From positions 21,266,001-21,330,000 of the forward strand of contig CM114271.1 in assembly GCA_050084515.1 (NCBI GenBank): a DNA stretch of 64,000 nucleotides, in the 5' to 3' direction. This DNA is from Blasia pusilla. Lineage: Eukaryota. Shown one piece after another: positions 5,841 to 37,579 of the stretch. Every line of letters begins with the position of its first letter. The first letter of the stretch is position 1. The position numbers and the translations under genes are program-made. The notes under the pieces were generated by a model, which had not been told where the DNA came from, searched no databases, and saw only the letters and a program-made list of their open reading frames with translations.

Positions 5841-6291
5841 GCATGTCTGATCGACACTCCACATCTAGTTATTCATTTGCTTTGGGAAGCGCAGCTATAA
5901 GTTGGGCTTCAAAGAAGCAACCTACAGTTGTTTTATCTTCAATAGAGGCTGAGTACAAAGGAGCAACCAATGCAGCATGTGAGGCGGTGTGGCTTCATCG
6001 ATTACTTGTTGAGATTGGTGTTAGTAACTTAGGACCTAGTGTAATATATATAGACAATATTAGTAGCATCAAGCTTAATAATAACCTTATGTTTCATACT
6101 CGTACAAAGCATGTTGAGGTGCACTATCATTTTATCATAGAGAAAGTGCTTGTAGGGGAAATTGATCTTGTGTGTATAAGTACACATCAGCAAATTGCTG
6201 ACATCTGTACAAAGGCATTGTCGAGAGATAAGTTTGAGATGTTTAGAAATGATTTAGGTGTTAAAGATATCGATATGAGCTTGAGGGGAAG

Positions 6292-6603
6292 TATTGAAGA
6301 TTGAGTTACAGTCAAGCTCATGAGACACATGAACTGTTACATTTGGTACTCACATGAAGTAGGGAAGCTTAATCTTGGTTAGTTACTTAAGCACGATTAT
6401 CTTAACTACGGTTAGTTAATCCCAGTTAGTCTAACTCTAGACTATGGTTAAAATTAGGGTTAGGGTTGCTTGTACATACCCTATATAATTGAGAAGAGGA
6501 CCAGCCTCCACTCATTCTCTCATTGCAAGTTTCGTTCTCCATGGTAGTGTGTGTGTGTGAGAGCCGTTTTCCACTAGTTACGCTTGTTTAGCAGTTTTCC
6601 ACA
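6292..6603 (+). repeat. Copia 3' LTR
   Basis: Follows the PPT directly. Starts tattg (TGTTG-like), contains tatataa, ends ccaca at the junction with Gypsy RNase H. Confidence 0.75.
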
Positions 6604-8531: not shown

Positions 8532-9303
8532 ATTGGAGATATTTTGCTAGTCGTCGTCTTGTTTTTTGGATGCCATGAGTAAGCATGGGATGTGCGTGTT
8601 TGTATGTGTATTCGGTGATACGGATGTATGTTGTGTAGAGACGTGTATGCGCACGACGGTTGTCACGTCTTTTAGGATAGATCGATAAGATCTAGTAGAG
8701 CACCTTCACAAGCAATGGAGGACAGGCTCAAGAGGTCGAAGATGATTTGCTGAGGCCCCGAGAAACCTAAGAGAGCAGGTTTCCCCTTCGTTTCGGCTCA
8801 ATTGTAGCTATATTGAAGAACTTACTATTTTGGGTAAATACCATTTTGAGTATATGGTCAAATTTCTATTTTGGGAAGGGGCCCTTGACCTCCTATATCA
8901 TGTCAAGAGCCAAGGAGGTGACTTAGGAGCATAGGTTACCATGGAGAGAGCTTGGGAGAGAGGAGGGGATATACCTCAAGGAGAGAGAGCTTGAGAGCTC
9001 ATTCTTTATTTGTTGAACCTCTTGCCATGAGGCGGCAGAGCTATGGTCCCTTGCCTTGTGAGTGTCACCCAAGTCTCTCATTAGGAGAGTGGGTTTGGTT
9101 TGACATTGAGAGAGACATGTGAGATTGCACAAATGTGAGAGCTATGGTGTTGTGAGACAGATTTGACCTTATTTTATTGGAGATATTTTGGTACTCCTCG
9201 TCTCGTTGTTTGGATGCTATGAGTTAGCATGGGATCGTACGTGTTTGTGTGCGTATTCGGTGACAGCGATGTATGTTGTATAGCGATGTGTATGCGCATG
9301 ATA
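8532..9303 (+). repeat. 3' terminal split repeat B1 (8532-8658) - A (8661-~9156) - B2 (9176-9303) of Gypsy copy 1
   Basis: attggagatatttt...tatgcgcacgacg recurs as attggagatatttt...tatgcgcatgata on each side of an A block starting tgtcacgtctttt. A purine run taggggggaaa precedes B1. Confidence 0.88.
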
Positions 9304-17500: not shown

Positions 17501-18543
17501 TCATTTAGCGTTTTAAGTTTATTCCTATTGTGGATATTATATATGAAATTGGCACATGACTAGTTATACAAAATTTTAAAGGTGATGAATGGATGTGGTT
17601 TTGTGTTCTCGGTGGAGGTGGATTCTTTGGTTGAGGAGCCACATTCAATTGTTTTTTCTTGTAGTGTAAAAAGTTATCATAGAAGATAGCTTGCAGATGT
17701 AGTCATCAGAGAAATGAATGAGGTTGTTTTCTCAAGAAGAACTTTGCTGTTTGGACATCCAATATGTTCAAAAGAATAACCAGTTCATGATTTTGGCCAC
17801 AAGGAGACTATAAATCTATTTTCTTTCTCCCTTTTAGATATGGCGGCTTAGTGTAGTCTTTTTTCCTCTTGACAACTTTAGAGTTTGGACCTACTTTCAG
17901 AAGTTGAAAAAAAAATCTTCCTGTTGTTTTTTGTGTGGTCCAAATCGCTATAAGTTGTGGAAGACACTCATATTGGTGAATACCATAGAGGAGATATGCT
18001 TTTAGAGGTTCCTTTATAGGGAAATGTTCACCTACATATTCTTTTGGGCAACTTTCTTCTCGCTATACACCTATATGTGTGAACAAGTGTCTATGTTTTC
18101 ATATGTGGCATATGAATACTTGTTATGAGTATTTGACAAAGTTTGCACATCTCCAAAGCAAAGACATAAGTGCATGATGCATCAATTCATGATATACTCA
18201 CTTGGCTCTGGTACACAACATTATGAGTGCAAAGACATTTTACCTTGAATATTAGAACTCAATGAACATAAGAAGAATAGCATGTTCCCTTGTATTGCTC
18301 AACCACGGTTGATGGAAGGTATTCCATACTTTATTTGAGTAGATTTGACACCAATAGGTTTTCCTTTCATGACCTCTTCCATTATTTCAGTAAGATATTC
18401 AGGAAATCCTTTCATTTCTTCTTGCTGTGTCTTCATTTTTACTACACAATATAACACAATGTGTTCTTAAATAAATGGAGATTTCCCTTTGTATGCATAT
18501 TGGAAGGCATTCTGGAATTCTGTCACCTACAAAGAGGGAAATT

Positions 18544-19140
18544 ATGACTTAAGTTCTACCATGTGTTTAATGTGGATGGTGTGTTGCTTTGATCCTTTCT
18601 TCCTCCTTCTGTTGGATTTAGAATTATCTCTGTCATAATATAACTTGCTATTGGGGAGTGCTCACTTTTCGTAATTTTATTCTCTTATCATGTTAATCAC
18701 TGTGGCCTTTGTGTCCATTACGGAAGGCATTCTAGCGAACAGTAAACTTCCAAACATTACACAATGACTTAAGTTCTATCATGTGTTTAGTGTGGATGGT
18801 GTGTTGCTTTGATCCTTTCTTCCTCCTTCTGTTGGATTTAGAATTATCTCTGTCATAATATAACTTGCTATTGGGGAGTGCTCACTTTTCGTAATTTTAT
18901 TCTCTTATCATGTCAATCACTGTGGCCTTTATGTCCATTACGGAAGGCATTCTAGCAAACAGTAAACTTCCAAACATTAAACAATGACTTAAGTTCTACC
19001 ACATGTTTAGTATGTATGATATGTTGCTTTGATCCTTTCTTCCTTCTTCTGTTGGATTCAGAATTATCTCTATCATGATATAACTTGCTATTGGGAAATG
19101 CTCACTTTCCATAATTTTTTCTCTTACGGTGTTAATCATT
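18544..19140. repeat. 220-bp tandem repeat, ~2.7 copies
   Basis: atgacttaagttcta at 18544, 18764 and 18984. The first two units are nearly identical. Confidence 0.95.
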
Positions 19141-19566
19141 TTGGACCATGATCAATTACTTTGCAGGATAACATGGACATAAATATATCTCCCAACCCTC
19201 TATTGGAACCTCTTGATTGGATGGACCATATACATGTGCATCAAAGTGCTTTAACCAAAAGAGTCTTGGCCATGCGGAGGATACAAGTTCAAGGGGACTT
19301 GCCGCCTGGACCGATATTAGCATTGCGCTTACACTGGGATATTCACAATATTGTGTTCATTCCTTGGGAAAGACTGCAAGATTTCATTGAAGGCGAGGGT
19401 GATGGAGATGGGATGAATCCCACAAATTTCTGGAAAGGAACGTCAAGATGTTTGAAAGATGCAGGAGAGATCGAACAAGAGGATCCATCATACGTGTCGT
19501 GCGCATACACATCGCTACACATCGCTACCCTAAAGTAAGCTCCAATCTCTCTCATTCTCCACCATC

Positions 19567-20048
19567 TCACACCATAGCTCTCAAAGGTGTGCACTCTCTC
19601 TCATGTCAAACCAAACCCACTCTCCTAATGAGAGGCTTGGGTTACACTCACAAGGCAAGATACCATAGCTCCGCCGCCTCATGCCAAGAGGTTCAACAAA
19701 GAGAGAATGAGCTCTCAAGCTCTCTCTCCTTGAGGTATACCCCTCCCCTCTCCCAAGCTCTCTCCATGGTAACCTATTCTCCCAAGTCACCTCCTTGGCT
19801 CTTGACCTGATGTAGGAGGTCAAGGGCCACTTACCAAAAATAGTAAGTCAATCATATTCTCAAAATGGTACTTACCTAAAATAGTAAGTTCCTCAATATG
19901 GCTCCAAATGAGCCGAAACGAAGGGGAAACCTACTATCTCAGGTTTCCAAGGGCCTCAGCACGTCACCCTCGAGCTACTGGGCGTGTCCTCCACTACTCA
20001 TGAAGGCACTCTATCAGATCTCACCGATCTATCCTAAAAGACGTGACA
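19567..20048 (-). repeat. Repeat A2 (3' copy), flanked by B1 (20051-20172) and a short B2 (19495-19566)
   Basis: Near-identical to 28462-28943. Both B blocks end gcacgaca on the element strand. Purine tract ctaggggggag (20173-20183) precedes B1. Confidence 0.9.
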
Positions 20049-20352
20049 GTTGTCGTGCACATCGCTACACAACATACATCGCTGTCATCGAACACACACA
20101 CAAACACGCATGATCCAATGCTAACTCATGGCATCCAAACAACGAGACAAGAAGTACCAAAATATCTCCAATCTCCCCCCTAGCTGGTGGTTAGGTCCCT
20201 CTAACTTAAGATAGCCATCTATCCCTACCTACCGTGACATACATCTCTCGGACGCTAAGAGCAAGAAGATCGGGTGCTCATGTGGCCCCATCGTTAGTCG
20301 CCTCCTTGTCATCCATGTCACAGACACAAGTTGGAATGTAGAACTACCTTCT

Positions 20353-20495
20353 CTATGTACATCTGGGACACATCCATCGTCCCTGAGGAACCCTAGTGAG
20401 AGGTGGCGTCAAACATGCCATCCTCTCGAACACCCATCACAGACTAGCATCGTGGCCGCACCACGGGCAGAACCACACAACATACAATGCAAGCC
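20353..20495 (-). pseudogene. PHD finger at the integrase C-terminus (copy 2)
   Basis: Minus strand reads CMLCGSARGAATMLVCDGCSRGWH-(small deletion)-LTPPLTRVPQGRWMCPRCT*. Confidence 0.85.
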
Positions 20496-20499
20496 TGCA

Positions 20500-21620
20500 G
20501 GAACTACTGCTAAGCTCGGATCTACTGTACCATCAATGTTAGGAAGGTGACATGGCGCACAATTACGCACATGGTCCTTCTATACCATACCATCGCGTCC
20601 CTCCAGCAAGAGAACACCCGATGGCAAAATATCACGCACTCTCAGGATAGTGCGCCCTGCAGTCACATCCAACGTCGTCGGTGCCGTCTGCTGCAAGTAG
20701 ACATAATCTCCTTGATGAAACCTCCGGATAGTTGGTCGATAACCACCAACCCGAATAGTCGCATACCTCAACGTATCCCGATGTTGTGCAATCGCCAAGT
20801 TCTCGAACGCCATGGGCATCACTCTCCAAAATAACTCAGCCCTCTGAGAACATGCTCGCACCCATACATCTGGGTCATCAAGGTTCAACACCTCACCAAA
20901 GACATCTCGCGAATGGCCGAGGTAAATCGGCTCGGCCATAAAGTAGCAGCACGGTGAAAAAGACGCGCTAAGGATGCCTCGCTCTTTGAATCAGTATCCC
21001 ATCGCCAACCATGGAAACTAGAGGTCCCAATCTCCTAGGTGACCTCTCTGCAAGCCATACTTGCGTAAACCCCTCTTCACTGTCTGCACAACTCTCTCCG
21101 CTAATCCATCCGCCTTGGGATGATCTCGCGAAGTCGTGCGGTGGTCGATCAGCGCCTGATCACACAAGGCTTGGAACTCATCGCGAAACTCGATACCGTG
21201 GTTTGTCAACACCTCAGCCGGTGTGCCATAATGACTCAGCACTCTGTCAAGGAAGGCATAAGCTACTCCCTCACTCGCTTTGTCAGGCAATGCAACCAAC
21301 TCGATCAACTTCGAGAAGTGCTCGACCATCACCAACACATAACGACTATGACGCTCCGTCAAGGGCAAAGGTCCTGCAAAATCCAAACTCCATCTATACC
21401 CTAAGCCCATGATCGGTAACGGATGCAACTATGGAGTCGGAGCATTGAACGATGCTCGGACCCGATCACACACCATGCACTTGGCAACAAACTGCTGAAC
21501 GTCAGTCTGCATGCCTCACCACCAATACTAAATCTGGAGCAAGGCATGTCCGTCGCTTCACCCCAAAGTGACCCAACTCCTCGTGGGCATCTTTGCACTA
21601 GTCGTGCTCTCTGCAAAGGA
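20500..21620 (-). pseudogene. Gypsy DDE integrase (HHCC + rve)
   Basis: HEELGHFG, LHPLPI, WSLDFAGPLP, VEHFSK, YGTPAEVLTNHGIEF, HPKADGLAERVVQTVK. Confidence 0.92.
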
Positions 21621-21969
21621 TGCGGCACTCACGCGTACTCTGCCATCCTCCCAAACCCTCAAAACATGTGTCCCCTCCCAACGGAACCGCCCGGCCATTT
21701 GTGAGGATCCGATCCCGCTCTCTAGCATCCATGGTGCTTTAACGCTTGCCAATATGTCTGAAGATACTCCAAGACTACTCCATCATCATGAATATCTCGG
21801 CCACTTGTCGTATCCTCACCGGCCTCGGGATCAGGACTCTCCACTAGACCTGCGCCATCGAAGTCTCCACACTCGGCTCTCCATAGCTAACATGCCTAAA
21901 TAGGCGTCGTGCCATCCTGGCACCGACTCCTCATCACTCTCTCCATGCCATCGTTTGCGCCGATGCATC

Positions 21970-23407
21970 TCTCGACTCGGGCATGGGTTACGACTCAACC
22001 CATCGCATCCTGGTTGAGTGTCCCAGGTTTATGTACCACCTGAAAATCATACTCCTGCAACAACAGAGCCCATCTCGCAAGCTTCCCTGTAAGCTTGTCG
22101 GACTCCATCAACCACTGAAGTGGTTGATGATCAATGATGATGGTAAAGGGGTTGCCGAATAAGTAACACTTGAAATGCATGACAGCCCACACCGCAGCCA
22201 AGCACTCACCCTCAATCGAGCTATACTTTGCCTCTGCAACATTGTTCGAGCGGCTAGCGTAAGCCACCACAAACTCTCTACCCTCATCATCATGCTGGGT
22301 GAGCACCGCTCCAAGCCCCAACATGCTCCAATCTGTGTGCAACTGGAAAGGACGCCCCCTGATCGGTCTCCTCAAGATGGATGCGGACGTCAACTTGTCC
22401 TTGAGCAACTGAAATGCTCGCTCCTGCTCATCCCCCCGGTGCCACTCATGATCCACCTTGGTCAGCAAGGTCAGTGGCTTCACAATCGAATTGAATCCCT
22501 TGACGTATCGCCGATAGAAGTTTGCCAATCCCATGAATGCGCAAACACAGCTCACATCTGTAGAGCGTGGAATGTGTGAGATAGCCTCTACCTTTGTCTG
22601 CTAAACACCAAGGACCCCTGGGTATATCGTATGACCCAAATACTCAATCTAGTCGTAGAAGAACTTGCACTTGCCTGGATGTAGCTTCAGCCCATGTAAT
22701 TGCAATCGTCTAAACACCTCCTCTAGATGTTGCTCATGCTCCTCAACCGTGGCGCTAAAGACTACGATGTCATCAATATAACACCTAGCAAAATCCAGAC
22801 TAGCCAAGATCCTATCCATGACCCTCTGAAACTCAGCCGGGGCGTTCTTAAGCAAATGGTAAGAACCGCCTTTGTTACAAACAATCCTTCCGTGAGGATC
22901 GATGCCCCAAAATGCCATCTTCACTTTGTCCTCCAATCGATGGCGGTGATGATGGTATCCGGCTTCATAAATCAATGAATTGAAGACCTTTGCGTGACCA
23001 ATTGCATCAAAGATCTCCTCAGGGGTGGGCATGGCATATCTATCGGACTTCGTCTGCCGATTGATAGGTCGGTAATCCCCACACATCCGCCTATCCGTCC
23101 ACTTGCCATGCACATCCTTCTTGGCGGGCATGACAATTGCAGATGCATACTCCCCATGCGACATCTCCACTAGTCCTGCTCCGACCAAGTCCTGGCTCCT
23201 ACTTTGAATCATAGCCCTCTCCATATCATTGTACCTGTAGGGTCGTCGGAAGATAGGCATATCACTCAACAACTCAATGCGGATCCCCGGTCCCTTTAGC
23301 GTACCCAAATCCTCCATGCTTAACGCAAAGCAGCTCCTATAACTCCGAGGGCGATGTATTCGGCGCCGCTCTCCTCCTGTCAACTTAGGGCCCATATCGG
23401 CTCCCAA
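21970..23407 (-). pseudogene. Gypsy reverse transcriptase and RNase H
   Basis: RMCGDYRPIN, LKNAPAEFQRVMD, YIDD, LKLHPGKC, FMGLANFYRRYVKGF, LHTDWS, YSSIEGECLA, IDHQPL, LARWALLLQEYDF. Confidence 0.95.
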
Positions 23408-23739
23408 GTCTCCATCATGACTACGGTAGGACTCTCCGGTAGCTGGTATCGGTGGTTGCTATGGTGCAACCCCGTCTCGAACAACAACACTCGGCCGCTC
23501 TCCTACACCAAGCGCAAACTCGATCTCCTCCGCGTGCGGTGCGAAACCACGCTTCGATGTTGTGGCTATCATCTCTTTTGCGTGCACTGCAAAACATCCC
23601 AAGAAGTCCAAGGGTGTCTCTCCCGATCTCCCCTCGTGCGTAGATCTCCTCGGGTCTCGCCCCCAGCCACTGCCTCCATTGTCTCGGTAGGCATGGGGCT
23701 CACCAACGCAACCGTTGTGATCTGTCGCGATCTCATACG

Positions 23740-24703
23740 ACGCTTCTGAGCCACTCCCAAGCTCAGGATCCATGTCAAGCGATTCAGGTCCATCGCTTTG
23801 ACCCAAGACATGGTGTCGTGATGCCTCGACATCGATGGTACCTGCCGTCACTCCTGTGGGAAATCCCATCGCTCGCTCTCTCTAGTCGGCGTTGGGCTCC
23901 ACCAACCGCTGAACCTGGTCATCCCAAACCAAGCCAGGACCGGCCTCCTTGTATGCATAGGAAGCGGGAAAACTCACAGACGTGGGTAAGGCTGCCCGCG
24001 GCCTGCCTACCCTGTTGACCACAGTCAACGGTGGTCGATCATCGTGCCTCACCGTGTGATCGGCGACTGGATCCGAATGGAATCCACTAACAAATGGGAG
24101 GGGCGCTCCACTCTGATACGCCCTCCATAACTTTGCATGGGGCACCAAGTTGGTCCACCATAGACGCGGCGATGGGTTCTAGAACCTACACTCGCCGCAT
24201 CCAAGAATTTCTTCTTTTGGGCGATCCAAGCACGCTTTTTGATGAGCACTCGTCACCACTCGTGACCTGGAGTCTCCTAAGATCGGCACATTCTCTTGAA
24301 TGTAGGCTAGAGAACGAGACTGGCGCTCCTGCAACTGCCGTAAGACCCTCAACATCTCCCAAAACAACCTGGACCGAGTGTCGCCAACCCGCTGCCTCGT
24401 CAAAGACTCGATTGTACGACGACATGGCCAACCGGCAATGACCAAATCAATGGTCCCTACCCGCTCTAAGTCCTGCGCCCCCAACAACAAAATATCCCTC
24501 GGTAGGGAACTCTGGTACCCATGTACTGCGGACGCAGACAATAAGTCGGGAAAATGTAGGCGTAATTGCGCCACATGTCGTAGTGAGACGCGCCTCGCAA
24601 CATCATCACTCTCCACATACAGGTACTGCTGTACTCACACTCTTGCCTGCAAAACAGCAGCTAACCCGGTGCTAATCCCTCCAAAGAGATCTAACACTCG
24701 AAT
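23740..24703 (-). pseudogene. DNMT3-like DNA cytosine-C5 methyltransferase domain embedded between protease and RT
   Basis: Motifs in canonical order: I IRVLDLFGGISTG (~24703), II YVESD, III RDI, IV DLVIAGWPC (Cys ~24422-24424), VI ENVP (~24295), LDAASVGSRTHR followed by frameshifted RLWWTN (VIII), IX RERAMGFPTGVT, X SRHHVLGQ/AMDLN. Confidence 0.88.
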
Positions 24704-25132
24704 ACCCTCCTCCGGGATACACCACACAATGGGTGTGGTATCCAAGGGTGTGATCGTAGCACTCCCTGTTACCTTGGGTTCCTCAGACCCGTCATGCTCT
24801 GGTGCAAACGCCTCGCTCCACGCGGTCTGCACGTGCTCATCTGCCAATCGTTGAAGCTCCTCAATCGAGCCCCACAACGGCACCTCTCCTCCACCGAATG
24901 ATGCAGCTACCATAACACTCCTCTCCATAGAAATGTCAGGAACGGGAGTATCCTCTGCATGGACATGTCCCTCAATCAAATCACTAGGCCAAGTGATGGC
25001 ACTACTAAATGCTGCTAAGGTCGCCATCTCTCCTGGCCGTTGCTTGATCACTGCACCCGTGAATCGAACTAGTAATGAGCTAAGGCGCCCATCACCTGAC
25101 TGCCATCCTGGTCTATAGGACGCTGACTCCTC

Positions 25133-25801
25133 TCAATAATCTAGGGAAAACCCCATCGGGTATAACATTGCTCCACCAACCAAGACGTCGTAGGACTGTG
25201 CATCAGTCACTATCGCCTTGGCGCGCACCACGGACTCATCTATAGGATGTCCCGGGAAAATCCTTACCACGACCTCTTGTCGGGTGATATACTGTGTGGT
25301 ACTCGCTCCACCCAAGGATGTCTGGATCCGGAATGGACAATGCTCCACATCGGCTTTCGTCAAGCCCAATCCTCTGAATGACGCTTTCCCCAACATCAAG
25401 GGTTGCGCTCCTGAATCCAACAAGACGAGCTCCGGACTAAAAGCTCTACCTCCAAAACTCACCAAGTGGAAGACCTCTCCTCGGTTATCCAACAACACAA
25501 CACCAGGAGAAGCCATGGCACGCTCTATCGCGGGTCTAGCGGGCATCTCCGCCATCCTAGCAGCCGCAGCCTGCCATGAATTTGACGTGGACGGCCCTAG
25601 CATCCGCTCCAAGGGCAGGTCCATCACCTCCTCTGCCATCACCTTTGAACGTGATGCAGGAACTCCAACTCCGCGCTCACATAGTGAAGCGGCCAGCCAA
25701 AAAGCCTCGGCGGGCGTACCCCCCAACGTCATAACATCAGAAGCAGAAAATAAAGGAGTGCGGTACACAACGGTGGCCGCCCCCAACAACGTGCTCGACA
25801 C
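25133..25801 (-). pseudogene. Retropepsin-like aspartic protease region
   Basis: VLLDSGAQP catalytic motif and YDVLVGG (DxLLG-like) motif, positioned between gag and the DNMT domain. Confidence 0.85.
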
Positions 25802-26260
25802 ATGCCCCTCCTAAGCATCAACAATAGGAGTCGTTGCACTCGCTTCTCCCATCGCCCTTCGTGCTTGCACACCAACAACATCACCAACTCTCCAGGAACT
25901 TTGATGAGGACCCATCGATGGGGTCCTCATCGCTTCGGACAACGTGAAAGACTGAGGAAGCCTAGTAAATCTTCGGCTTCCCGCATTTGTGGATCCAACT
26001 CGCGGTCGTTCCCGCGTCACAACTGCGGTGGCCTCCATCTGGGCAACCCCGCACATCCATCCAAGATCCTCCAGATCTCTGGCTGCTCCATATGATGTCG
26101 ATGCCACGGATCCGGAATCGGGTAACCTCAATGCCATAGCGGCAATTTGCTCCTATAGCTGCTGTATCTGAGCAGCCATCCCAGCCTCACGTCCGGCGTC
26201 TCCCTCGACGTGTCTAGGTGGTGGTACTCTACCTCCTCCACGGGCAGCTCCACCACCCTG

Positions 26261-27424
26261 TCAGGAAACTCCAGCTCCTCGTCTCCCAACGGGACCACGT
26301 GGTGCACGATCTCTAGGCCCACCCGGACCGGCTACTCGATCTGGTGCCCTCTCTGGCCCTCGGTCCGGACGTAACTCAGGATGTAAACTGAAACACCTGG
26401 CGCGTGTATGACCATACCTCTGACAATAGTCACACTGATAACCTCCTGGTGCAGCACCATCTCCTCCTCCATGTTGAGGCATACGTCCATGACCCAGAAG
26501 AGTGCAATCACGTTGATGATGGGCTCCACCACATGACCAACAAGTAATAGTAGGCGGCTGTTGCTGAGCGGCATATGAAGGCGCAGGTCTCTGTGGCACG
26601 GCCTCCCGGTATCCTCCCTGAGCTCGTGGTGCCACAGTCGACCTATCTCCGAGTCCAGGTTGCTGCATAGCTGGTGCAGACAATCCTGACTGCTCTCGCC
26701 CAGAACCCATGGTGGCTACGCTCTCCTCCACCATGTTGCGCTCAATGTTCTCGGCGGTCCTAAAAACATCTCTCAACGTAGGGGAGGTGTTCATAAGAAG
26801 CACCCCCTCCCGCACCCGTGTCCGCAGGGTCCGGTCCAGCATCGCGTACCATGACTGGATAGCCTGAGCCTCTATCACCCCCTGAGTGACGTTGATCAAC
26901 CGGCGCAAGCGAGTGTAAGCCTCACGCAAACTCTCACCCGGGCGCCTCTGGAAGTCGTGGATGCTCCGCAACTTCTCCGTCCGTACCCCCTGGTAGCTCG
27001 CCCTCAACTCAGCAAAGAACTCAACCACAAGGTTGAACCTGGGACGAACCCGACTAGACGGTGCAACTGCTCCCGTGCGAGTGACCCCTCCTAAAACGTC
27101 ACTAGTGGAAGAGGTAGTAGCCTCTCCTGACTCCTCCTCCTCGTCTGGGAACGGCTCCGTCCATGACACATAATGTGGGTCATAGTAGTGCCTCCACGCC
27201 TCGATCTCACATGCATATCTATGAGAGAACTCATGGTAATCGTCCATGGGCGCCCCCTCTAAATGCTCAAACATACCGTTCCATGTTGTAAATGGGTTGA
27301 ACTCTCTAGAGTTCCTGGCCCGCTGGGAGTCACACCAACTCCTAAACTCTGCTATAAAATCGTGCAACTCAATCGTGCCTACTGCACCTGAAAACCTACG
27401 CGGTCCTCTACCCCGGTCGTCCAT
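26261..27424 (-). CDS. Gag with two CCHC zinc knuckles
   Basis: 387-aa ORF. FQRRPGESLREAYTRLRRL (major-homology-like region), CWSCGGAHHQRDC and CDYCQRYGHTRARC. Confidence 0.88.
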   Translation of the reverse strand: MDDRGRGPRRFSGAVGTIELHDFIAEFRSWCDSQRARNSREFNPFTTWNGMFEHLEGAPMDDYHEFSHRYACEIEAWRHYYDPHYVSWTEPFPDEEEESGEATTSSTSDVLGGVTRTGAVAPSSRVRPRFNLVVEFFAELRASYQGVRTEKLRSIHDFQRRPGESLREAYTRLRRLINVTQGVIEAQAIQSWYAMLDRTLRTRVREGVLLMNTSPTLRDVFRTAENIERNMVEESVATMGSGREQSGLSAPAMQQPGLGDRSTVAPRAQGGYREAVPQRPAPSYAAQQQPPTITCWSCGGAHHQRDCTLLGHGRMPQHGGGDGAAPGGYQCDYCQRYGHTRARCFSLHPELRPDRGPERAPDRVAGPGGPRDRAPRGPVGRRGAGVS

Positions 27425-28461
27425 CTCGTACGCTCAACTGGTAGGACCACTCACAATGTGTGGCGATGTGCTCACACCCTCCCCCTTGTCTGACGATGAC
27501 ACAGAAGGAGGTCGAGGTGGTCCCTCACGTGGAGACCCTCGGAACCTCGCGCCACTCCGCGTAAAACCTCTAGAGCTACTCTCGAGTTCACCACCTCGCC
27601 TCTCAAAGTCCCGAACGGACTCCGTGATGACCCTCGTGCCCCTCTCACCTGATCACTCTGAACCTCGTGAGGAATCCCTCAATCACTCATCCCAAACATG
27701 CGGCACTCGATCTACACTCTCTCTTCCCGAGACGTGTAACGTGCGGCAACACGCGGCGTGGTGCGGCAAATCGACCAGGCTATCATCTCATCGAAAACCT
27801 ACCCTCAACTCCGGACATACCACACAGGTCTATGTCCCCTAAACCACATACATAAATAATGCTCTCAGCATCCACATACCCAATATCCCCAAATAAATCC
27901 CAGAATCCCTCACACGTGCAGGGTAAAGGACCAGAATGGGTAACCTGAACACATGTCGATGTCGCTCCTCAGCAACTGCAAATCTCGACCCCAACTCGAT
28001 TGTGGAGACAACTCCTCCAATCAGCAAGTCATACTCCTCCCGTACTGATGCTGCTCAAAACTCAACGATAGACAGTACGGTCCCAGCGGAACGGTGCGGC
28101 GTTGCAGGCGGCACGAAATGGCTACGAACGGCACGGCCCTCGATGGTGGGATGCGGCACTCGGCGGCATACCCTCCTCAATCAATAATAATCCCACACTC
28201 TTCTCCACAATGACGGTGCGTCTCCGCGATCGAGATGGTGCGGTGCGGCCACGAGCGGCAAGGCGCGGCAATCGACGGCGCGTTGCGGCTACGGGCGTCA
28301 CGGCACGATACTCGATCGTCGTCGAGCGGCTACCAATCACAACATAGCAGCATGAAATCAAAACTCAAACACCATAACCGGAGGTCATCTGCAATCAGTG
28401 GTTGATGAAGAAACTGCGATGACGGTGGCGGCCAAAACAAAGTACGTGGTGGCGACGCAAG

Positions 28462-28943
28462 TCACACCATAGCTCTCAAAGATGTGCACTTTCTCTCATG
28501 TCAAACCAAACCCATTCTCCTAATGAGAGGCTTGGGTTACACTCACAAGGCAAGATACCATAGCTCCGCCGCCTCATGCCAAGAGGTTCAACAAAGAGAG
28601 AATGAGCTCTCAAGCTCTCTCTCCTTGAGGTATACCCCTCCCCTCTCCCAAGCTCTCTCCATGGTAACCTATTCTCCCAAGTCACCTCCTTGGCTCTTGA
28701 CCTGATGTAGGAGGTCAAGGGCCACTTACCAAAAATAGTAAGTCGATCATATACTCAAAACGGTACTTACCTAAAATAGTAAGTTCCTCAATATGGCTCC
28801 AAATGAGCCGAAACGAAGGGGAAACCTACTATCTCAGGTTTCCAAGGGCCTCAGAAGGTCACCCTCGACCTATTGGGCGTGTCCTCCACTATTCATGAAG
28901 GCGCTCTATTAGATCTCACCGATCTATCTTAAAAGACGTGACA
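28462..28943 (-). repeat. Repeat A1 (5' terminal repeat) of Gypsy copy 2
   Basis: Starts tgtcacgtctttt on the element strand. Identity to A2 stops at gctatggtgtga. No B block and no TGG-type PBS follow. Confidence 0.9.
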
Positions 28944-31899
28944 TACGTTTTCTATTTCTGTGCTTATGGCCCGCAAGACTACCAACATCGAAAACAACTA
29001 GCCATAAATATGTAAATATAGTAAACTCTCTATATTCTTTTTTTGTTCTCTTCTCATGTCATGGTTTGATTGTAAGTTATATTTCTTCTCGTGTCTTTCT
29101 CATTAAACTAATCTTAATTCTTGTATAATTTAGTTCATAACCCTGATCTCCCAAAACACATGTCAGAATGCCTTCCATATGTTGCATGTAGAATTTTAAA
29201 ACATGTGGTAACAGCCCATTGAATAACTTTTAACATTGGACATACCACTGGATCTTACAGGTCAAAAATTCCTAAGACAGGACCTGGAAGTAGGCCACGT
29301 GGCCAGAAGATCATTCAAGGGGAAAGTTGGAAACGTGGATGTCAATGTCGCTTTTCCAGTTTCAGAGTTGAGGGATCTTGTTCATGCTGCAAAGATTGTT
29401 TACAAGCATAGACTACATATCGACAAGGAAGGGAAGCCATGTCACGGTTCACACGATCCGACATGCAAGGACACGCCAAAGATGTATGCCCCAAGAATAT
29501 CACACAATCTGAGATCGTATATTAAAGAGAGGCTTCGTCTTGGGGTGAATCCCCACCAGATTCTGTCGGAGCATGGTGTCACATAGAAGATGCGATCTGA
29601 GATGGATCCAAATTTCGAAGAAAGCATGAAGAGAGATGATTTCTTGCGAATGCATAATATCCTCAATGTGAAGAAAGAGCTAAATATGGAGACCTTTCAA
29701 TATTGTATGGGTGAAAATGAATCATTGAGATATTTTGTGACCCTTTATCTGGACAAGGTGTTCTTTTATGAACCATATATAGAGAATGCGAGGCCCTTCA
29801 TCTTAGGCTTCCAAAGCCAATGGCAATTGCAAACATTGGTCAAGCTTGGACACAATAGTGTATTAAGTATGGACTGTACATTTGGAACAAATTGAAGCAA
29901 GGTAAGTTCACTACATGTTATCATGGTGTTTTGAAAAAAAATGTGCATCACATATTTATTAAGCAAAGTCTCAGACATTGTGGTAATGGTTTGTTGGGTG
30001 TGTGGATTGTATGAGTGCAGTTCCCATTATACACTATTTTGGTATTTGATGAGCATCATACCGGGATACCAATGGCATGGGTTTTGACAAGTAGCTCAAA
30101 AGAGGTACATTTGGTTAGGTGGATGAAGGCAGTGGTCGGGAAATGTAAGACAATCCAACCAAATTGGGAGCCAAATGCAGTCATTGTGGATGATGCAAAT
30201 GCAGAGCAAAATGCCTTGAGGTTTGTCCATCCACTTCCTATCCATATTGTATCTTGTTATAAATAAGCAACTGAATTCTACTATTTTTACCACATTTACA
30301 ATTTCGGCATCCACCATGCAGAAATGGAAGGCATTATAGCCATGCAAATTCAATGACGTTATCTATTTATCATTCCATGTAGAGAGACATTTGGAGGTGT
30401 AAACATCATTTTGTGCCTTTGGCATGTACGACACGATTGGTTGAAGCAATTGAAGCGCAAGGTCCACTGCCCCATTTTTAAGAGCACAAATGTCACAACG
30501 TCTTGGAGAAATAATGTATGTCAATCGTTGTGGTACCTACACGAGAGGTGATGTCTTATATGACGCAAGAAATGCCTTGCAACAGTTCTATGCAGACTTT
30601 AGCGGAGAAGTTGCTTTTGTGAATTACATCCAGACTTATTGGGAGCCCAAACTAGGCAAGTTCATTGAACCTCTCATGTCTCTTGGATTTTCCCACCACT
30701 GGATCTTTAGGTTATGTAATTTACATTAAATATGTGGTGACTCTTGCTGGTTTTTTTTTGCAGAAAAGTGGGTTAGAGCAGCTAGGGACTACCCTCATGC
30801 AAACCAAGACACGAATGCTGCTATTGAAGCTTATCACGGAAGCATGAATGCAGTATTAAATAATTATAACAAGAGGTTGGCTAGAAGAAGAGGTGACTAC
30901 CTTGTGTGGAAGCTCCTCGAGTCCATTGAAGCATGGTATTTCCACATACAACTCTTAAAAAAGAAAGGCTTTGTGCAAAATGCAGCACAGGAGCAATATA
31001 TCAACAATGCAGTTCTAAAAGGAAAAGCTATTGCGGCCAGTGACGTTGTACTGACTCAAACGAGGGGTAATATACGCATGGCACGAGTAAAGAGCCAGAC
31101 AGTTCTCAATAAGTGGTATGAAGTCTACAATTATGACATTGAGTGGGAACATTGTGAGTGTCCATGGTCTCTTAAGGGTAACATTTGTAAGCATATGGTA
31201 AGTTTCACTCGATGATTATTCCATGAAGTAATATCCTTTGCTCTTTAATGGTTCAGAAGAAAATATGAATTATGAAGTAGAAACCCACTGAATGTGGAAG
31301 TGGAAAATAGATTGCTGCTTTGTTGCAGGAAAGCTTTGATGAGGCCGATTTGGTGAGGGTATTAGGAACAAGATTGGGTACAACACAAGGAGGAATATGC
31401 CATCTACAAATGGTGAGGATCGAATCAGACACTACCTTACGTCCATCGTTGGCAAACACCTTGGATCTCAATGAATTACCAGCAACAGAAGCAGGTATCT
31501 TCTCCTGTCAATGAATTCATACTTAGATTTTTCCTTGTTGTTGAGGTGTCTTATTTGTTTATGACATATCCTTTTTTAAGTTATGGCTACTATGTGGTAT
31601 GTTTCAAAAGGCATTCTAGATGAAGATAGCACCATATTTTCTTCATATATGGAAGATGGATATATGGGCACGCTTCTGCACCATCCACCAATTGCTGAAA
31701 GATCTCCATCGATGTTAATGGGAATACATGAGAGTTCTAATAGAATTCTTCCAAGTCCATCTCCCTCTATGGAGCAAATGGTCATTACTATGGACAAGTT
31801 ATACATTGAACTACGCACTAATTGTGGAGGAAACCTGCAATTTTTTACATTAGTATGTAAGATGTTGAGAGAAACCAATGGTAGAATAGAGACAGCAAA

Positions 31900-34800
31900 T
31901 GTCGCGCTCCTACCCTCCTTGAACGTCAATCTTTAGTGTTGCGGAAGCGTACGTTCAGTAGGTCACGAACTCATCGCTGATCTGCACCCAAACACGCACT
32001 CTCGTTAGTCGGGTCTGGGCCAACCAGCGTTCCCACCCACCGAGTCCTCCACTCGACGTCTCATCAAGCTCAACCTTCCTTAGTTCCTAGTTTCCAAAAC
32101 ATGGCAAGTCCTTCAAGACTTGCAACAGACTTCCTGGTTAGTCCAGGGATCTGAAACGGCCCTTGCGCGCCTAGCGATCCCAACTATTCAAAGGTCCTCG
32201 GGTGAGTTCCGAACCGAGACCCAAGTAATTGAGTCGCGGGCTGGAATCCAAGAGGGATGTCTAAAATCACCTCAATGGACTTGGTGCAGGTTTTCCAACC
32301 CAACCCCCAAACTCGCGTTCCGTTCCATGCCCTTGAGCCGGCCCGCGGCGCCCAAAGTGGGGTTTGGGTTCCAAGCACTCTCGGAGACCTTCCCCCTTAC
32401 TAGTACTTCTGGGGTTCTCCAATAACCCCTCCCCTTTGGGGAAAGAGGGTCGGGCCCTTCATTGTGGCCCTCAACCCGACTCCACTTACAGTCGTTTTCG
32501 GGTCGTATCTCGGCCGCTGCTTATGCGTTTGCAGCGATCTTTGGTGCGTTTGGACCGGCTCTCCATAAGTTTTCCAATACATCCTTATTTGCTCCAAACG
32601 CATCTTGGCGCTAAAAGTAATGGCCATAAATACAGTCGGAAACTCTCAAACGCTAGTGGCGTTCCAAATCCGGATCCTCCCTTTGGCAACCCACTTCCTA
32701 GACTCGACTTCTTTCAAGTCTGATTCCGCGTTTGGTCCAGGTTTCTCTGTCGCCACCATAACACCTGAAACGCGACTCCTCGCTCGCGTCACGTCTCTTG
32801 TCTCCTCTTTGAGACAACTCCAACGCGCAAACCATCTTAGCGTAAGCCCGCTAATGTTCCGATGTTCCTTTTGGCACTTGTTTGGTCATGAGGGTCGCGA
32901 CACTCACCCCTCTTTTAGAGGTTGATGCCCTCATCAACGCAAACCTTTATTATGTCAACTCTCATGGGCAGCCTACCCCTTGACATTGAATTGCGTTCTG
33001 GTGGCTAACCCGCAATTCCTCTTAGTCTCTAGTTGTCGCTTTGCCCCACTTAGAATTATTAGCCTCTCCTCTTTGATAAGCCTGGACTAGTTCCAAGGAA
33101 CTAACCTATCAAATAAGCTAACTAAGCGTGCAACCTTAGACTCTTTTGACTCATTACTGTAAACATCACACCTCTTTACCTGGTCCACAAATCGTAGTAC
33201 TATTGGGTCGCTCTCGTATTCGACTTAGGCGCGTCACTAAGTTTACTTATGTGGCCACAAGTAAGATCACCCCAAGCCCCAAGACAGACTTCATCTGCCC
33301 CGCCGACGGTAGGGCGAGCCCGAGTGTAATTCAACACAAGGTCCTGTTCTAGGTGCTTATCCACATACGAGCTCTCACCTCAAATACTCCTTGTATGTCC
33401 TCTTGTCATACATCCTAAGCCTATGATGAACGACTCATAGCCATGCACAACCACATACAAATTGCAATCCACACTGGTATCGAATCTCCAAATCCATACA
33501 CTCCTTTATTGCAACACTAGCATATTCTAGTTACAACGGCCTTCGGCCCAAGATTCCACTGGTTATAAGTCATGTCTCTAGCTTCTTCTCGTACCAACGT
33601 ATGTGCTTCGCTTGTGTTCGCTTGAAGTCGCGCAACAAGTCTTGCGCGTGTTCCAAATCCGCCTCCGCAATCCAAGTCGCCTCCTTCACATGATAGCCCT
33701 TCCATTTTACCAAGTATTCATACTTGTTGGCCCGACGCCTCGAACGTAAGATGGTCTCCACCTCAAACTCCGGCTCTTCATTTACAATGATCGGGTGCGG
33801 TCTCACCACCTGTCTCCGCGCGAAACGTCCATTATCTTGAAGATATTTCTTCAACAATGACACATGAAAGGTCGGGTGAATCTTGAACTCGGCCGTCAGC
33901 CTCAATGTATACACATCCTCAAACGGGTTTGCCACAATCACATACGGTCCAGGATACTTGGCAGACAGCTTCGCAAAAAACTCTTTGGGAAGAGTGAGGT
34001 TCTTTACACTCAACCACACTTGTTCTCCAACTTGGAATCGTACTTGGCGCCGACTCTTGTTAGCATGCTTAACGTACCTCATTTGAGCCTTTGCAAGACT
34101 TCGCCTCGCGCGCTCTTCTTGTTCTCGCATCTCTACCAACAAACCTTCTGCCATCGCTTGTTGTGTTCGTGCCAATGTACTACCCTTCGAAAGGGCTAGA
34201 TCAAGAGGCCCTTCTGGCTCTCGTCCATTTACCAGGAGAAACGAAGATTCTCCAGTTGTAGAATGCTTGGTCGAGTTGTAGCGAGATTCGCCATGCTCAC
34301 CACGACCCAATCGCGTTGATCAAAGACCGACATAATTCCTTAAAATCTTGATTCACGATAGAGCTTACCTTTTCACCGATCATCCATGCGTGGGTGGAAA
34401 GCCGTCTTGAAACTCAGCTTGGTCTTTAAACGAACAAGTGCTTCCGAAAAGCACGGTAAACTTTGATCCCGATCTGAAACAATGCTCCTCGGCAAACCAT
34501 GAGCACGCCACCAGCTATCGAGGAATAGTTGCGCCGTTGTATACGCCGTTGCGGAATCCACCGTCTGCACGAATCTTGCCAACTTGCTAAACCGATCAAC
34601 AATCACAAGTATAGCGTTGTATCCCTCAGATTCCGGAAGACTCGTGATGAAATCCATACTCACACTTTGCAAGGGTCCTTCTGGGATCGGCAAGGGATGC
34701 AGCAAGCCCTGTTTCGTATCATAAGAGACTCTATTTGCTTGGCAGGTCACACAGGTCTTCACATATTGAGCAACATCCTCTTTCATGTTGGGCCAAAGAA

Positions 34801-35357: not shown

Positions 35358-37579
35358 TGAAAGAAGAGCGCGCAAGGCGAAGTCTTGCAAAGGCTCAAAT
35401 GAGGTACGCTAAGCATGCTAACAAGAGTCGGCGCCAAGTACAATTCCAAGTTGGAGAACAAGTGTGGTTGAGTGTAAAGAATCTCACTCTTCCGAAAGAG
35501 TTTTCTGCGAAGCTGTGTGCCAAGTATGCTGGACCGTATATGATTGTGGCAAACCAGTTTGAGGATGTGTATACATTGAGGCTGCCAGACGAGTTCAAGA
35601 TTCACCCGACCTTTCATGTGTCATTGTTGAAGAAATATCTTCAAGATAATGGACGTTTTGCGCGGAGACAGGTGGTGAGACTGCACCCGGTCATCGTAAA
35701 TGAAGAGCCGGAGTTTGAGGTGGAGACCATCTTACGTTCGAGATGTCAGGCCAACAAGTATGAATACTTGGTAAAATGGAAGGGCTACCATGTGAAGGAG
35801 GCGACTTGGATTGCGGAGGCGGATTTGGAACACGCGCAAGACTTGTTGCGTGACTTCAAGCGAACACAAGCGAAGCACATACGTTGGTACGAGAAGAAGC
35901 TAGAGACATGACTTATAACCAGTGGAATCTTGGGCCGAAGGCCGTTGTAACTAGAATATGCTAGTGTTGCAATAAAGGAGTGTATGGATTTGGAGATTCG
36001 ATACCAGTGTTGATTGCAATTTGTATGTGGTTGTGCATGGCTATGAGTCGTTCATCATAGGCTTAGAATGTACGACAAGAGGACAGACAAGGAGTATTTG
36101 AGGTGAGAGCTCGTATGTGGATAAGCACCTAGAACAGGACCTTGTGTTGGATTACACTCAGGCTCGCCCTAGCATCGGCGGGGCAGATGAAGTCTGTCTT
36201 GGGGCTTGGGGTGATCTTACTTGTGGCCACATAAGTAAACTTAGTGACGCGCCTAAGTCGAATACGAGAGCGACCCAATAGTACTACGATTTGTGGACCA
36301 GGTAAAGAGGTGTGATGTTTACAGTAATGAGTCGAAAGAGTCTAAGGTTGCACACTTAGTTAGCCTATTTGATAGGTTAGTTCCTTGGAACTAGTCCAGG
36401 CTTTTCGAAGAGGAGAGGCTAATAATTCTAAGTGGGGCAAAGCGACAACTAGAGACTAAGAGGAATTGCGGGTTAGCCACCAGAACGCAATTCAATGTCA
36501 AGGGGTAGGTTGCCCATGAGAGTTGACATAATAAAGGTTTGCGTTGATGAGGGCATCAACCTCTAAAAGAGGGGTGAGTGTCGCGACCCTCATGACCAAA
36601 CAAGTGCCAAAAGGAACATCGGAACATTAGCGGGCTCACGCTAAGATGGTTTGCGCGTTGGAGTTGTCTCAAAGAGGAGACAAGAGACGTGACGCGAGCG
36701 AGGAGTCGCATTTCAGGTGTTATGGTGGCGACTTAGAAACCTGGACCAAACGCGGAATCAGACTTGAAAGAAGTCGAGTCTAGGAAGTGGGTTGCCAAAG
36801 GGAGGATCCGGATTTGGAACGCCACTAGCGTTTGAGAGTTTCCGACTGTATTTATGGCCATTACTTTTAGCGCCAAGATGCGTTTGGAGCAAATAAGGAT
36901 GTATTGGAAAACTTATGGAGAGCCGGTCCAAACGCACCAAAGATCGCTGCAAACGCATAAGCAGCGGCCGAGATACGACCCGAAAACGATTGTAAGTGGA
37001 GTCGGGTTGAGGGCCACAATGAAGGGCCCGACCCTCTTTCCCCAAAGGGGAGGGGTTATTGGAGAACCCCAGAAGTACTAGTAAGGGGGAAGGTCTCGAG
37101 AGTGCTTGGAACCCAAACCCCACTTTGGGCGCCGAGGGCCGGCTCAAGGGCATGGAACGGAACGCGAGTTTGGGGGTTGGGTTGGAAAACCTGCACCAAG
37201 TCCAGTGAGGCGATTCTAGACATCCCTCTTGGATTCCACCCCGTGACTCAATTACTTGGGTCTCGGTTCGGAACTCACTCGAGGACCGTTGAACAGTTGC
37301 GATCGCTAGGCGCGCAAGTGCCGTTTCAGATCCTTGGACTAACTAGGAAGTCTGTTCCAAGTCTTGAAGGACTTGCCATGTGTTGGAAGCTAGGAACTAA
37401 GGAAGGTTGAGCTTGATGAGACGCCGAGTTGAGGACTCGGTGGGTTGGAACGCCGGTTGGCCAAACCCGACTAACGAGAGTGTGTGTTTGGGTGCAGATC
37501 GGCGATGAGTTCGTGGCCTACTGAACGCACGCTTCCGCAACACTAAAGATTGACGTTCAAGGAGAGTAGGGGCACGACA
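35358..37579 (+). mobile_element. Second chromovirus 3' fragment in opposite orientation: integrase C-terminus/chromodomain (35399-35911), PPT, LTR (36579-37579)
   Basis: Reverse-complement near-copy of 31900-34122, with the same GPY and chromodomain peptide and a few substitutions. Confidence 0.93.

Follow-up and report, generated by a model that had tools for sequence, protein, structure and literature searches.

In textbook models, a retroelement with a DDE integrase has to produce identical LTRs at its two ends through two strand transfers. A different organization, A1-internal-B1-A2-B2, is known from Ngaro/PAT/TOC1 and from SymbioDIRS-Dnmt3, which carries DNMT3 too; here the B1-A2 joint contains both ends in full. 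For the split repeats of Ngaro/PAT it is proposed that the ends are rebuilt from this internal joint by template switches. The original prediction treated the layout as exclusive to tyrosine-recombinase elements, a view that is out of date given KnitGypsy-Dnmt3 of Klebsormidium nitens, in which DIRS-like repeats occur together with Gypsy domains (de Mendoza et al. 2018, Fig. 4c legend, PMC5890265). As described there, KnitGypsy-Dnmt3 is of the Gypsy LTR type, carries a DNMT3-type domain within its Pol polyprotein and has repeats in the order A-coding-B-A-B, as in a DIRS retrotransposon. The main-text passages of PMC5890265 that bear on this element give no detail of its junction, polypurine tract (PPT) or target-site duplication (TSD). 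In the searchable literature we found no description of the junction, PPT, TSD or cross-family conservation of such elements, and the one printed mention of the layout is that figure legend.

Here, we describe a 9,449-bp element on the minus strand (28943-19495) of a 64-kb window, the whole stretch of Blasia pusilla DNA that was analysed. Its order is TSD-A1-leader-gag/PR/DNMT-RT/RNaseH/integrase-PPT-B1-ac-A2-linker-B2 remnant-TSD. Block A1, the 5' terminal repeat (28462-28943), begins TGTCACG, as does block A2 (19567-20048); the two are 97.1% identical over 482 nt, ungapped (98% over the first 300 nt). Block B1 (20051-20172; nhmmer E 3.8e-40) is internal and ends CACGACA. It is separated from the start of A2 by a 2-nt spacer, 'ac' (20049-20050), and is directly preceded on its 5' side by the PPT-like purine tract CTAGGGGGGAG (20173-20183). 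The B2 remnant (19495-19523; nhmmer E 6.9e-4) consists of the last 29 nt of B and also ends CACGACA; by alignment to a second copy, ~95 nt of B are deleted from it. A short B2 had been predicted at 19566-19495. The part at 19523-19495 is indeed B, and 19566-19524 is instead a 12-nt extra piece plus a linker of ~28 nt homologous to that of the second copy. An nhmmer profile made from three B copies matches the 64-kb window at four places with E<0.001 (three additional rows all have E>2), and none lies next to A1, upstream or downstream. The 5' end is thus A alone and the second B lies between the PPT and A2, so that the two ends of the element share block A only.

The termini TGTCACG...CACGACA are flanked on both sides by CGTA (28947-28944 and 19494-19491), in keeping with the TG...CA ends and 4-bp TSD of the original prediction; ACGTA, a duplication of 5 nt, fits equally well. 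The A1/A2 and B1/B2 homologies place the ends independently of the flanks, so that a 4-nt match between the flanks has a chance of ~1/256. A TSD of 4 bp is short, and the joint between flank and A1 is known from one copy only. In run X4, summed contig depth, which does not measure copy number, drops from 9117.6 at 28826-28926 to 13.5 at 29028-29128, a sign that the repeated family ends near 28943. The family is abundant, with 116,205 contigs of run X1 on 3 kb of the element.

The coding part is that of a Ty3/Gypsy-type element. Gag with two CCHC knuckles, an aspartic protease (LLDSGAQ) and a DNMT3-type methyltransferase occupy 23462-27433 with seven premature in-frame stops. They are followed by an in-frame TAG at the DNMT/RT boundary (23459-23461; context TAG-CAA-CCA), a reverse transcriptase (YIDD) with RNase H (21998-23458; RVT_1 E 1.9e-16, RT_RNaseH E 9e-36) and an integrase with zinc-binding region, DDE core and C-terminal part (20583-21628; rve E 1.5e-11) that has one frameshift near 21404-21428. 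RVT_1, RT_RNaseH and rve thus lie in Gypsy order on one strand. Among 20 ORF pieces of the element, Pfam gives no Phage_integrase match that would indicate a tyrosine recombinase, and 10 other ORFs have no Pfam match whatever. The complete copy is a dead Ty3/Gypsy-type element, decayed by 15 premature stops and one frameshift, with the coding order Gag-PR-DNMT3, UAG, RT-RNaseH-DDE integrase.

The C-5 DNA methyltransferase domain (23815-24706; PF00145, 25 bits, E 1.5e-5) had been overlooked in the first reading of the sequence. It lies between protease and RT, in the same frame as both, and its translation includes LDLFGGISTG, GWPCRR (PCQ in relatives), QENVPIL and RERAMGFPTG. Each of its 31 PDB matches is to DNMT3A/3B/3C, DRM2 or one unnamed DNA methyltransferase. 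Homologues, of which the searches gave 38 and 77, are long polyproteins with CCHC, DNMT, RVT and rve from Marchantia, Sphagnum, Calypogeia, Closterium and Haematococcus. The best protein matches overall are liverwort and moss polyproteins (53-56% identity), and those of Marchantia are 53-55% identical. Because a DNMT3-type domain lies between protease and RT, the element is assigned to the streptophyte Gypsy-DNMT3 lineage; as that lineage is characterized in PMC5890265, it combines a DNMT3-type domain in a Gypsy polyprotein with DIRS-like A-coding-B-A-B repeats, and both are present here. It differs from KnitGypsy-Dnmt3 in its host and in that the family is far more abundant in Blasia pusilla. 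Among the protein matches, the single one from K. nitens is weak (KFL_000540020, 28% identity, E 1.7e-5).

The element combines traits of two groups. With canonical Ty3/Gypsy elements (Metaviridae) it shares a Gag with CCHC, the PR-RT-RH-IN order, TG...CA ends, a short TSD and a polypurine tract. It differs from them in that its ends are not identical LTRs, B1 separates the PPT from the 3' A-B unit, no TGG stands directly beside the 5' repeat, the polyprotein includes a DNMT domain, and the stop at the gag-pol boundary follows the DNMT rather than Gag. Unlike Ngaro/PAT/TOC1 and SymbioDIRS-Dnmt3, with which it shares the repeat order, it has no tyrosine recombinase and instead has a DDE integrase (H2C2 zinc finger) and Gypsy-type RT/RNase H; its TSD and TG...CA termini also set it apart from Ngaro/PAT/DIRS, which make no TSD.

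The layout recurs. As predicted, the 3' end of another copy in the window, copy 1 (8532-9303, plus strand), reads B1-gt-A-linker-B2 with a full-length B2 by alignment and nhmmer: B1 8532-8658, 'gt', A 8661-9150, linker 9151-9175 and B2 9176-9303. Its body reaches back to ~32, with a nested insertion of ~5 kb at 1209-6602; its 5' end falls outside the window, so only its 3' layout is comparable. The two copies are 83-86% diverged and identical in 3' layout, and their A-B linkers are homologous. A distant relative comes from one assembly of an organism other than Blasia pusilla, represented by L004 and by contig C148 (L015). L004, 36% identical to the window element over gag-pol and 68% over the integrase (281 aa), is an intact 9,158-nt unit assembled as a circle, PPT-B-gc-A-leader-gag, with a single B. 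It encodes Integrase_H2C2 and rve by Pfam, shows no tyrosine recombinase in the three reading frames scanned, and has as its sole internal stop a TAG at the same DNMT/RT position (context TAG-CAA-TCA). C148 reads pol-PPT-B1-gc-A(342 nt)-20-nt linker-B2-21 nt-contig end. From these two orders it follows that A precedes either the leader or linker-B2, as in the window.

Unrelated repeats could in principle fall in the order A...B-A-B by chance or through assembly error, and repeat-rich DNA carries a general risk of mis-assembly. Such an origin is extremely improbable: two diverged window copies share this order, as do contigs of public runs, including a B-A joint in X19, and the independent assembly of the distant relative. 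The recurrence of the layout refutes it.

Between B end and A start, the complete copy has the spacer 'ac'; copy 1 and an X19 contig have 'gt', L004 and C148 'gc'. What is kept between both families is CTAGGGGGG and TAGCGAT..CACGACA-NN-TGTCACG; outside these motifs, A and B of the window family give no significant alignment with those of the L004 family. Such conservation would be expected of integrase and priming sites. B1 of the complete copy and B2 of copy 1 are 91.3% identical, and in C148, B2 and B1 are 95% identical vs 87% for the remainder of C148 against L004. This closeness of B2 and B1 fits re-copying of one B from the other.

The position of the purine tract raises the question of which unit reverse transcription defines. 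As originally noted, the tract is upstream of B1 and not beside the TG of A, 124 nt upstream of the A2 start and hence not adjacent to a 3' LTR as in Ty3/Gypsy; in L004, GCTAGGGGGGG abuts B in the same position. It could be argued that the reverse-transcription LTR is B-NN-A, running from PPT to leader, and that A...B-A-B is secondary, for example an array (tandem or recombinant) or the product of integrase re-opening a 2-LTR circle at the internal CA-NN-TG. That the PPT adjoins B rather than A in both families would agree with this, as would the B block beginning with T followed by TG and ending CA, and one X1 contig with an A-37 nt-A tandem joint. We regard this account as improbable. The complete copy has no B upstream of A1 and its TSD lies exactly at the A start; B2 follows A in both window copies and in C148; and the conserved terminal motifs are at A start and B end, not at B start and A end. 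Moreover, the linker is inherited between copies and is therefore not a fresh end-joining scar.

The 5' joint requires separate consideration. At the end of A1 the complete copy reads ...GGTGTGA followed by CTTGCGTCGCC, in agreement with the predicted lack of a TGG PBS after A1. The leader (27425-28461), ~1.04 kb from A1 to the gag start, has no tandem repeat and its ORFs have no Pfam domain. At 28464, loose ends in 23 X4, 1 X6 and 2 X19 contigs (three organisms; the non-A form alone was counted) carry non-A sequence upstream of the leader that reads ...GAGGGTCTTCCACGACG[A/T]TCGTTGATTC.. The last 3 nt before the leader (TGA) are common to the A and non-A forms, as at a microhomology deletion, and the exact A1-leader joint of the complete copy may be private. 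The layout as such is not a one-off: its 3' part recurs in copy 1 and C148, and L004 passes from A to the leader without a B.

These loose ends bear on a more conventional account, in which both ends bore a canonical LTR, A-linker-B, an additional B1 followed the PPT, and the complete copy lost the 5' linker-B and perhaps the PBS by a private or subfamily deletion at the shared TGA. In its favour, the non-A sequence holds CACGACG, similar to the B end, and a weak B-like stretch, which may be a degenerate 5' B, lies 65-150 nt into the leader. Mononucleotide shuffles reach the score of that stretch in 6/500 and 11/500 cases, but 1/39 internal control windows score above it. In the loose ends, however, the 30 nt that precede CACGAC do not match B. 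A 5' B borne on an LTR would be re-copied in each cycle and equal B2, and none is detectable after A1 although A1 and A2 are 97% alike. In the intact L004, A passes into the leader without a second B (best local score 45 vs a shuffle mean of 47). L004 was built from reads of many copies in a metagenome bin, and its circular path could hide variants. Collapse of a second B is improbable, since B is ~105 nt long and the terminal overlap of the contig, taken as the likely assembly word size, is longer (127 nt). The K. nitens element is likewise described as A-coding-B-A-B in the legend cited above (PMC5890265). On balance, a canonical LTR with a lost 5' B is unlikely, less so than the B-NN-A unit.

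Priming may also be unconventional. L004 has no TGG at its A-leader joint either, and because TGG is lacking there in both families a tRNA-independent route is plausible. An initiator-Met PBS motif is absent from the element and L004 at up to two mismatches, and no tRNA gene was found in the 64-kb window.

Taken together, the architecture is real and unusual, and the element is a further member of a barely described kind. It is probable that the terminal repeats of this lineage are truly split, A1-leader-coding-PPT-B1-NN-A2-linker-B2, and that replication proceeds by a split-repeat scheme. Judging from the termini, the 'LTR' unit of the integrase would be A...B, TGTCACG...CACGACA with a 4- or 5-bp TSD, contiguous at the 3' end only. 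Transcription may start in A1 and continue through B1-NN-A2, whose internal joint would be the sole site holding both ends in full. By template switches, reverse transcriptase could then restore upstream A1 sequence using A2, and B2 using B1, and the DDE integrase would insert DNA ending in A start and B end, either linear or as a circle cut at the CA-NN-TG joint. In this scheme the transcript ends, the template switches and the form in which the DNA is integrated are all inferred.

In the palindromic att site of a retroviral 2-LTR circle, the CA of the U5 end stands beside the TG of the U3 start with a few nucleotides between. The internal B-end/A-start joint looks like such an LTR-LTR circle junction in its CA-NN-TG juxtaposition. 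It differs in that it is heritable and internal to the integrated element, and in that 2 nt, not 4, separate CA and TG. More tentatively, and with less than even confidence, we envisage a charophyte-to-bryophyte lineage of DDE-integrase Gypsy elements that has abandoned identical LTRs. Its split-repeat replication would be convergent with that of tyrosine-recombinase elements, with priming that uses no tRNA PBS beside the 5' repeat. The heritable CA-NN-TG joint would serve as both end-rebuilding template and att site, and the integrase would possibly make cuts there, staggered by 2 nt, in an intermediate that is circular or concatemeric.

The two-strand-transfer scheme cannot directly yield a lineage whose ends differ and which keeps the joined ends as an internal copy. 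Should the layout hold, split direct repeats would be independent of tyrosine recombinases and would have evolved convergently, and intact Marchantia copies would offer a tractable system for the priming and completion of reverse transcription. As foreseen in the original prediction, annotation by LTR pairs would also mis-call a very abundant Blasia pusilla family, reporting A-A pairs with wrong 3' ends, PPTs and insertion ages.

The split-repeat architecture, in which a Gypsy element with a DDE integrase carries its terminal blocks in the order A...B-A-B, is real and, on the sequences compared here, lineage-wide. This layout, as originally observed, is confirmed in the window and extends to a distant relative found on two contigs, L004 and C148. 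The element is 9,449 bp long and lies on the minus strand, from 28943 to 19495. Its block A1 (28943-28462) is 97.1% identical to A2 (20048-19567) over 482 nt without gaps. A base-by-base reading of the 3' end on the same strand gives the polypurine tract (PPT) CTAGGGGGGAG at 20183-20173, B1 with the end CACGACA at 20172-20051, the 2-nt spacer 'ac', A2 with the start TGTCACG, and a 72-nt stretch 3' of A2 whose last bases, at 19495, are CACGACA. As first observed, the PPT lies upstream of B1, directly before its start at 20172.

A second copy (copy 1), with 83-86% identity to the element, lies in the window in plus orientation and has its 5' end beyond the window start. Its 3' end was first described as B1-gt-A-B2 with a full-length B2, and 8532-9303 bears this out: B1 occupies 8532-8658 and is followed by 'gt', A occupies 8661-9150, and a linker then leads to a complete B2 at 9176-9303. 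A profile of three B copies finds B at exactly 4 places in the 64 kb (E<0.001), none of them near A1. The 72-nt stretch of the element had been called a short B2. By alignment of both 3' ends, the end of B is present as its last 29 nt, and the remainder is not B: it consists of a 12-nt extra piece and a linker of about 28 nt. The linker is homologous to that of copy 1 and is therefore regarded as inherited, not as a random scar.

Several other repeats lie nearby. Copy 1 is broken at 1209-6602 by an insertion of other repeats, about 5 kb in all, parts of which resemble 31899-32886 (72%) and 42320-43592 (77%). Inverted 2.2-kb arms at 31897-34120 and 35361-37582 (96.8% identity, 1.2 kb between them) are about 72% similar to 3184-4189, a part of the copy-1 insertion; they may represent a single element with long TIRs, or else two repeats placed head to head. 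The inverted repeat is adjoined by a tandem array at 37585-39840 (period about 380 nt, about 6 units, 82-88% identity). About 350 nt past the element's 3' end, at 18486-19145, a 220-nt unit is repeated three times in tandem, the later two copies being 88% and 74% identical to the first.

The termini of the element, TGTCACG...CACGACA, are set by the A1/A2 and B1/B2 homologies. CGTA stands directly outside both termini (chance about 1 in 256; ACGTA is an equally good reading), in line with the originally observed TG...CA ends and 4-bp target-site duplication (TSD). The joint between flank and A1 was observed in one copy. The family is very abundant: contigs from four public sequencing runs placed on 26200-29200 number 116,205 (X1), 10,320 (X4), 131 (X6), and 59 (X19). 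In X4 the summed contig depth, which is not copy number, falls from 9117.6 at 28826-28926 to 13.5 at 29028-29128, and this fall is taken only as a sign that the repeated family ends at about 28943. One X4 contig matches the flank 28942-29200 apart from 3 differences and extends 47 nt towards the element with sequence unlike A1; it could represent an empty site. Contig differences from the window are C>T at 55 and G>A at 50 places against A>G at 33 and T>C at 34 in X1, and 47 and 39 against 30 and 29, respectively, in X4. Such a C>T/G>A excess on 26200-29200 is as expected of a heavily methylated repeat family decaying by deamination.

The coding region is a single reading frame (27433-21404) with 16 stops, followed by a frameshift just before the integrase core. 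Pfam families found in the element are RVT_1, RT_RNaseH, rve, and PF00145 (C-5 DNA methylase; 25 bits vs a 22-bit cut-off), and in ten further ORFs of the element neither another Pfam family nor a tyrosine recombinase was found. The Gypsy polyprotein contains a DNMT3-type cytosine methyltransferase (23815-24706, minus strand), which was absent from the original account. Its translation has the motifs LDLFGGISTG, GWPCRR, QENVPIL, and RERAMGFPTG; the catalytic PCQ, present in all ten aligned relatives, is replaced by PCR in this dead copy. All 31 PDB matches of the methylase part are DNMT3A/3B/3C, DRM2, or one unnamed DNA methyltransferase.

Searches with the DNMT part returned 38 ('longer' search) and 77 ('near' search) homologues, which are long polyproteins also carrying CCHC, RVT, RNase H, and rve domains. 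For this reason, the element is placed by sequence in a Gypsy-DNMT3 lineage widespread in streptophytes. Named hosts are Marchantia polymorpha (53-56% identity), Calypogeia, Riccia, Sphagnum, Closterium, and Haematococcus; there is one weak Klebsormidium protein, and many homologues are unnamed metagenome proteins. The annotation of M. polymorpha includes intact polyproteins of this kind. A metagenome scan with Gag found one locus (L001), a decayed, truncated relative of 34% GC in which no terminal repeats were detectable. Gag matched only generic CCHC and retrotransposon-gag clusters in the Protein Atlas, with no useful taxon. In viral contigs, a scan with the polyprotein alignment found only phage-type DNMTs (L002, L003), and a scan with the junction pattern found 9 stretches, none of which matched the element's proteins.

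The relative came from a scan of contigs of prokaryote genomes, for which ten homologues were aligned as the query; it yielded one eukaryotic contaminant contig, L004. The first 127 nt of L004 are identical to its last 127 nt, and it is therefore read as a circularly assembled unit of 9,158 nt. Its assembly bin, G001, is labelled cyanobacterial; at least 2 contigs of a streptophyte-type eukaryotic retrotransposon indicate bin contamination. The polyprotein of L004 is almost intact (Gag-PR-DNMT, one TAG, RT-RH-IN-PHD), with 36% identity to that of the window over gag-pol and 68% over the integrase. At the C-terminal end of its integrase is a PHD finger (PF00628, 6459-6593, E 4.3e-10), a family listed for several homologues as well; none was detected in the decayed window copy. 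In chromoviruses, a chromodomain occupies this position.

The TAG of L004 (3489-3491, TAG-CAA-TCA) is its sole internal stop and matches in position a TAG between DNMT and RT in the window (23459-23461, minus strand, TAG-CAA-CCA). Plant viruses use the readthrough motif UAG-CAR-YYA, which we take both contexts to fit. On that reading, ribosomes passing the stop codon after Gag-PR-DNMT would produce Pol (RT-RH-IN). An ORF1 ending at this TAG fits the many homologues of about 1,250-1,450 aa that have CCHC, PR, and DNMT only.

The non-coding order of L004 is ...GCTAGGGGGGG, a block of about 105 nt ending in TTTACACGACA, 'gc', TGTCACGGG..., about 1.5 kb, and gag. C148, found by searching G001, is colinear with L004 (87%) from pol across the PPT, B1, and 'gc' to the end of a 342-nt stretch of A; beyond this come a 20-nt linker, a second B (95% to L004's B, end CACGACA), and 21 nt before the contig end. 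In this family too, A therefore leads into the leader, with no B, or into linker-B2 and flank, and B1 adjoins the PPT. Neither A nor B aligns significantly between the two families, and what is conserved between them is CTAGGGGGG and TAGCGAT...CACGACA-NN-TGTCACG, as would be expected of priming and integrase-recognition sites.

These arrangements bear on how the repeats should be parsed. If both ends carried A-linker-B as a canonical LTR, a second B should follow A in the L004 circle; none is there (best local score 45 vs shuffle mean 47). Collapse of a second B during assembly is unlikely because B is shorter than the 127-nt overlap, taken as the likely word size. The same parsing predicts that the 5' B is made equal to B2 in each cycle. 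A1 and A2 are 97% alike, and a profile search (nhmmer) finds no B after A1; plain local alignments there do not rise above shuffles. A transition-tolerant alignment hints at similarity to B in the leader, 65-150 nt from its start, with a score reached by 6/500 and 11/500 shuffles and exceeded in 1/39 control windows. This parsing is considered unlikely. With B-NN-A as the canonical LTR, B should stand upstream of A1 and nothing should come after A2; both window copies and C148 contradict that. Two-jump reverse transcription schemes give identical ends and are excluded by the reading of the element's ends, which are not identical. Leader and linker are inherited separately. B2 is close to B1 (95% vs 87% overall between C148 and L004; 91.3% between the window copies), therefore one B appears to be re-copied from the other.

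Contigs that match the window up to a point and then depart (loose ends) complicate the A1|leader joint. They match the leader up to 28464 and then read ...GAGGGTCTTCCACGACG[A/T]TCGTTGATTC.. in place of block A, in at least 23 X4, 1 X6, and 2 X19 contigs (24 of about 1,620 loose ends listed). This non-A sequence upstream of the leader reads ...CCACGACGATCGTTGATTCTC, and the three bases TGA are common to both forms. Because of these contigs, the A1|leader joint of the window copy may be a private or subfamily variant. It could have arisen by microhomology deletion; alternatively, a short stretch of the leader may have undergone aberrant strand transfer. The non-A sequence could be a degenerate B; neither L004 nor the rest of the window contains a good match to its 30-nt consensus. 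Leader tandem repeats were considered as a cause of the loose ends, and none were found. Also among the loose ends listed, at least 61 X1 contigs pass from A into the linker at 28462, as A2 does, and at least one X19 contig has a B|A joint with the spacer 'gt'.

The layout had been held to be confined to tyrosine-recombinase elements. That view is out of date because of KnitGypsy-Dnmt3 of Klebsormidium nitens, described by de Mendoza et al. 2018 (PMC5890265), whose figure legend gives it DIRS-like repeats with Gypsy domains and gives the SymbioDIRS arrangement as 'A-coding region-B-A-B'. The available portion of a 2026 preprint (10.64898/2026.05.21.726589) mentions 'streptophytes (Gypsy-DNMT3)' and holds no structural detail. 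In the portions of the literature available, a search for split repeats on Gypsy elements gave no description beyond PMC5890265. To that extent, the layout on Gypsy elements is not new in kind, having been mentioned in print once, without analysis, and the original interpretation is partly right.

The replication route as a whole is a hypothesis, for which the split-repeat logic proposed for Ngaro/PAT is the most economical reading. From the conserved outer motifs and the TSD, we infer that the DDE integrase uses the start of A and the end of B as its sites. At the internal B1-NN-A2 joint these two lie 2 nt apart, and the joint resembles an LTR-LTR circle junction but is heritable. The RNA would begin in A1 and pass through B1-NN-A2, perhaps into the linker and part of B2. 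By template switches, reverse transcriptase would restore the missing upstream A1 from A2, and B2 from B1. The product would be integrated as linear DNA, or after an integrase cut at the CA-NN-TG joint of a circular or concatemeric intermediate, which would leave 3'-CA ends and 2-nt overhangs. The A|leader joint has no TGG in either family, as first observed for the 5' repeat, and an initiator-Met PBS motif was found neither in the element nor in L004; tRNA priming adjoining the 5' repeat is therefore doubtful. There are no tRNA genes in the window, and a search of A and the leader for self-priming foldbacks gave only short, unconvincing inverted repeats. With this element, an unexplained problem of replication takes a concrete form that can be tested.
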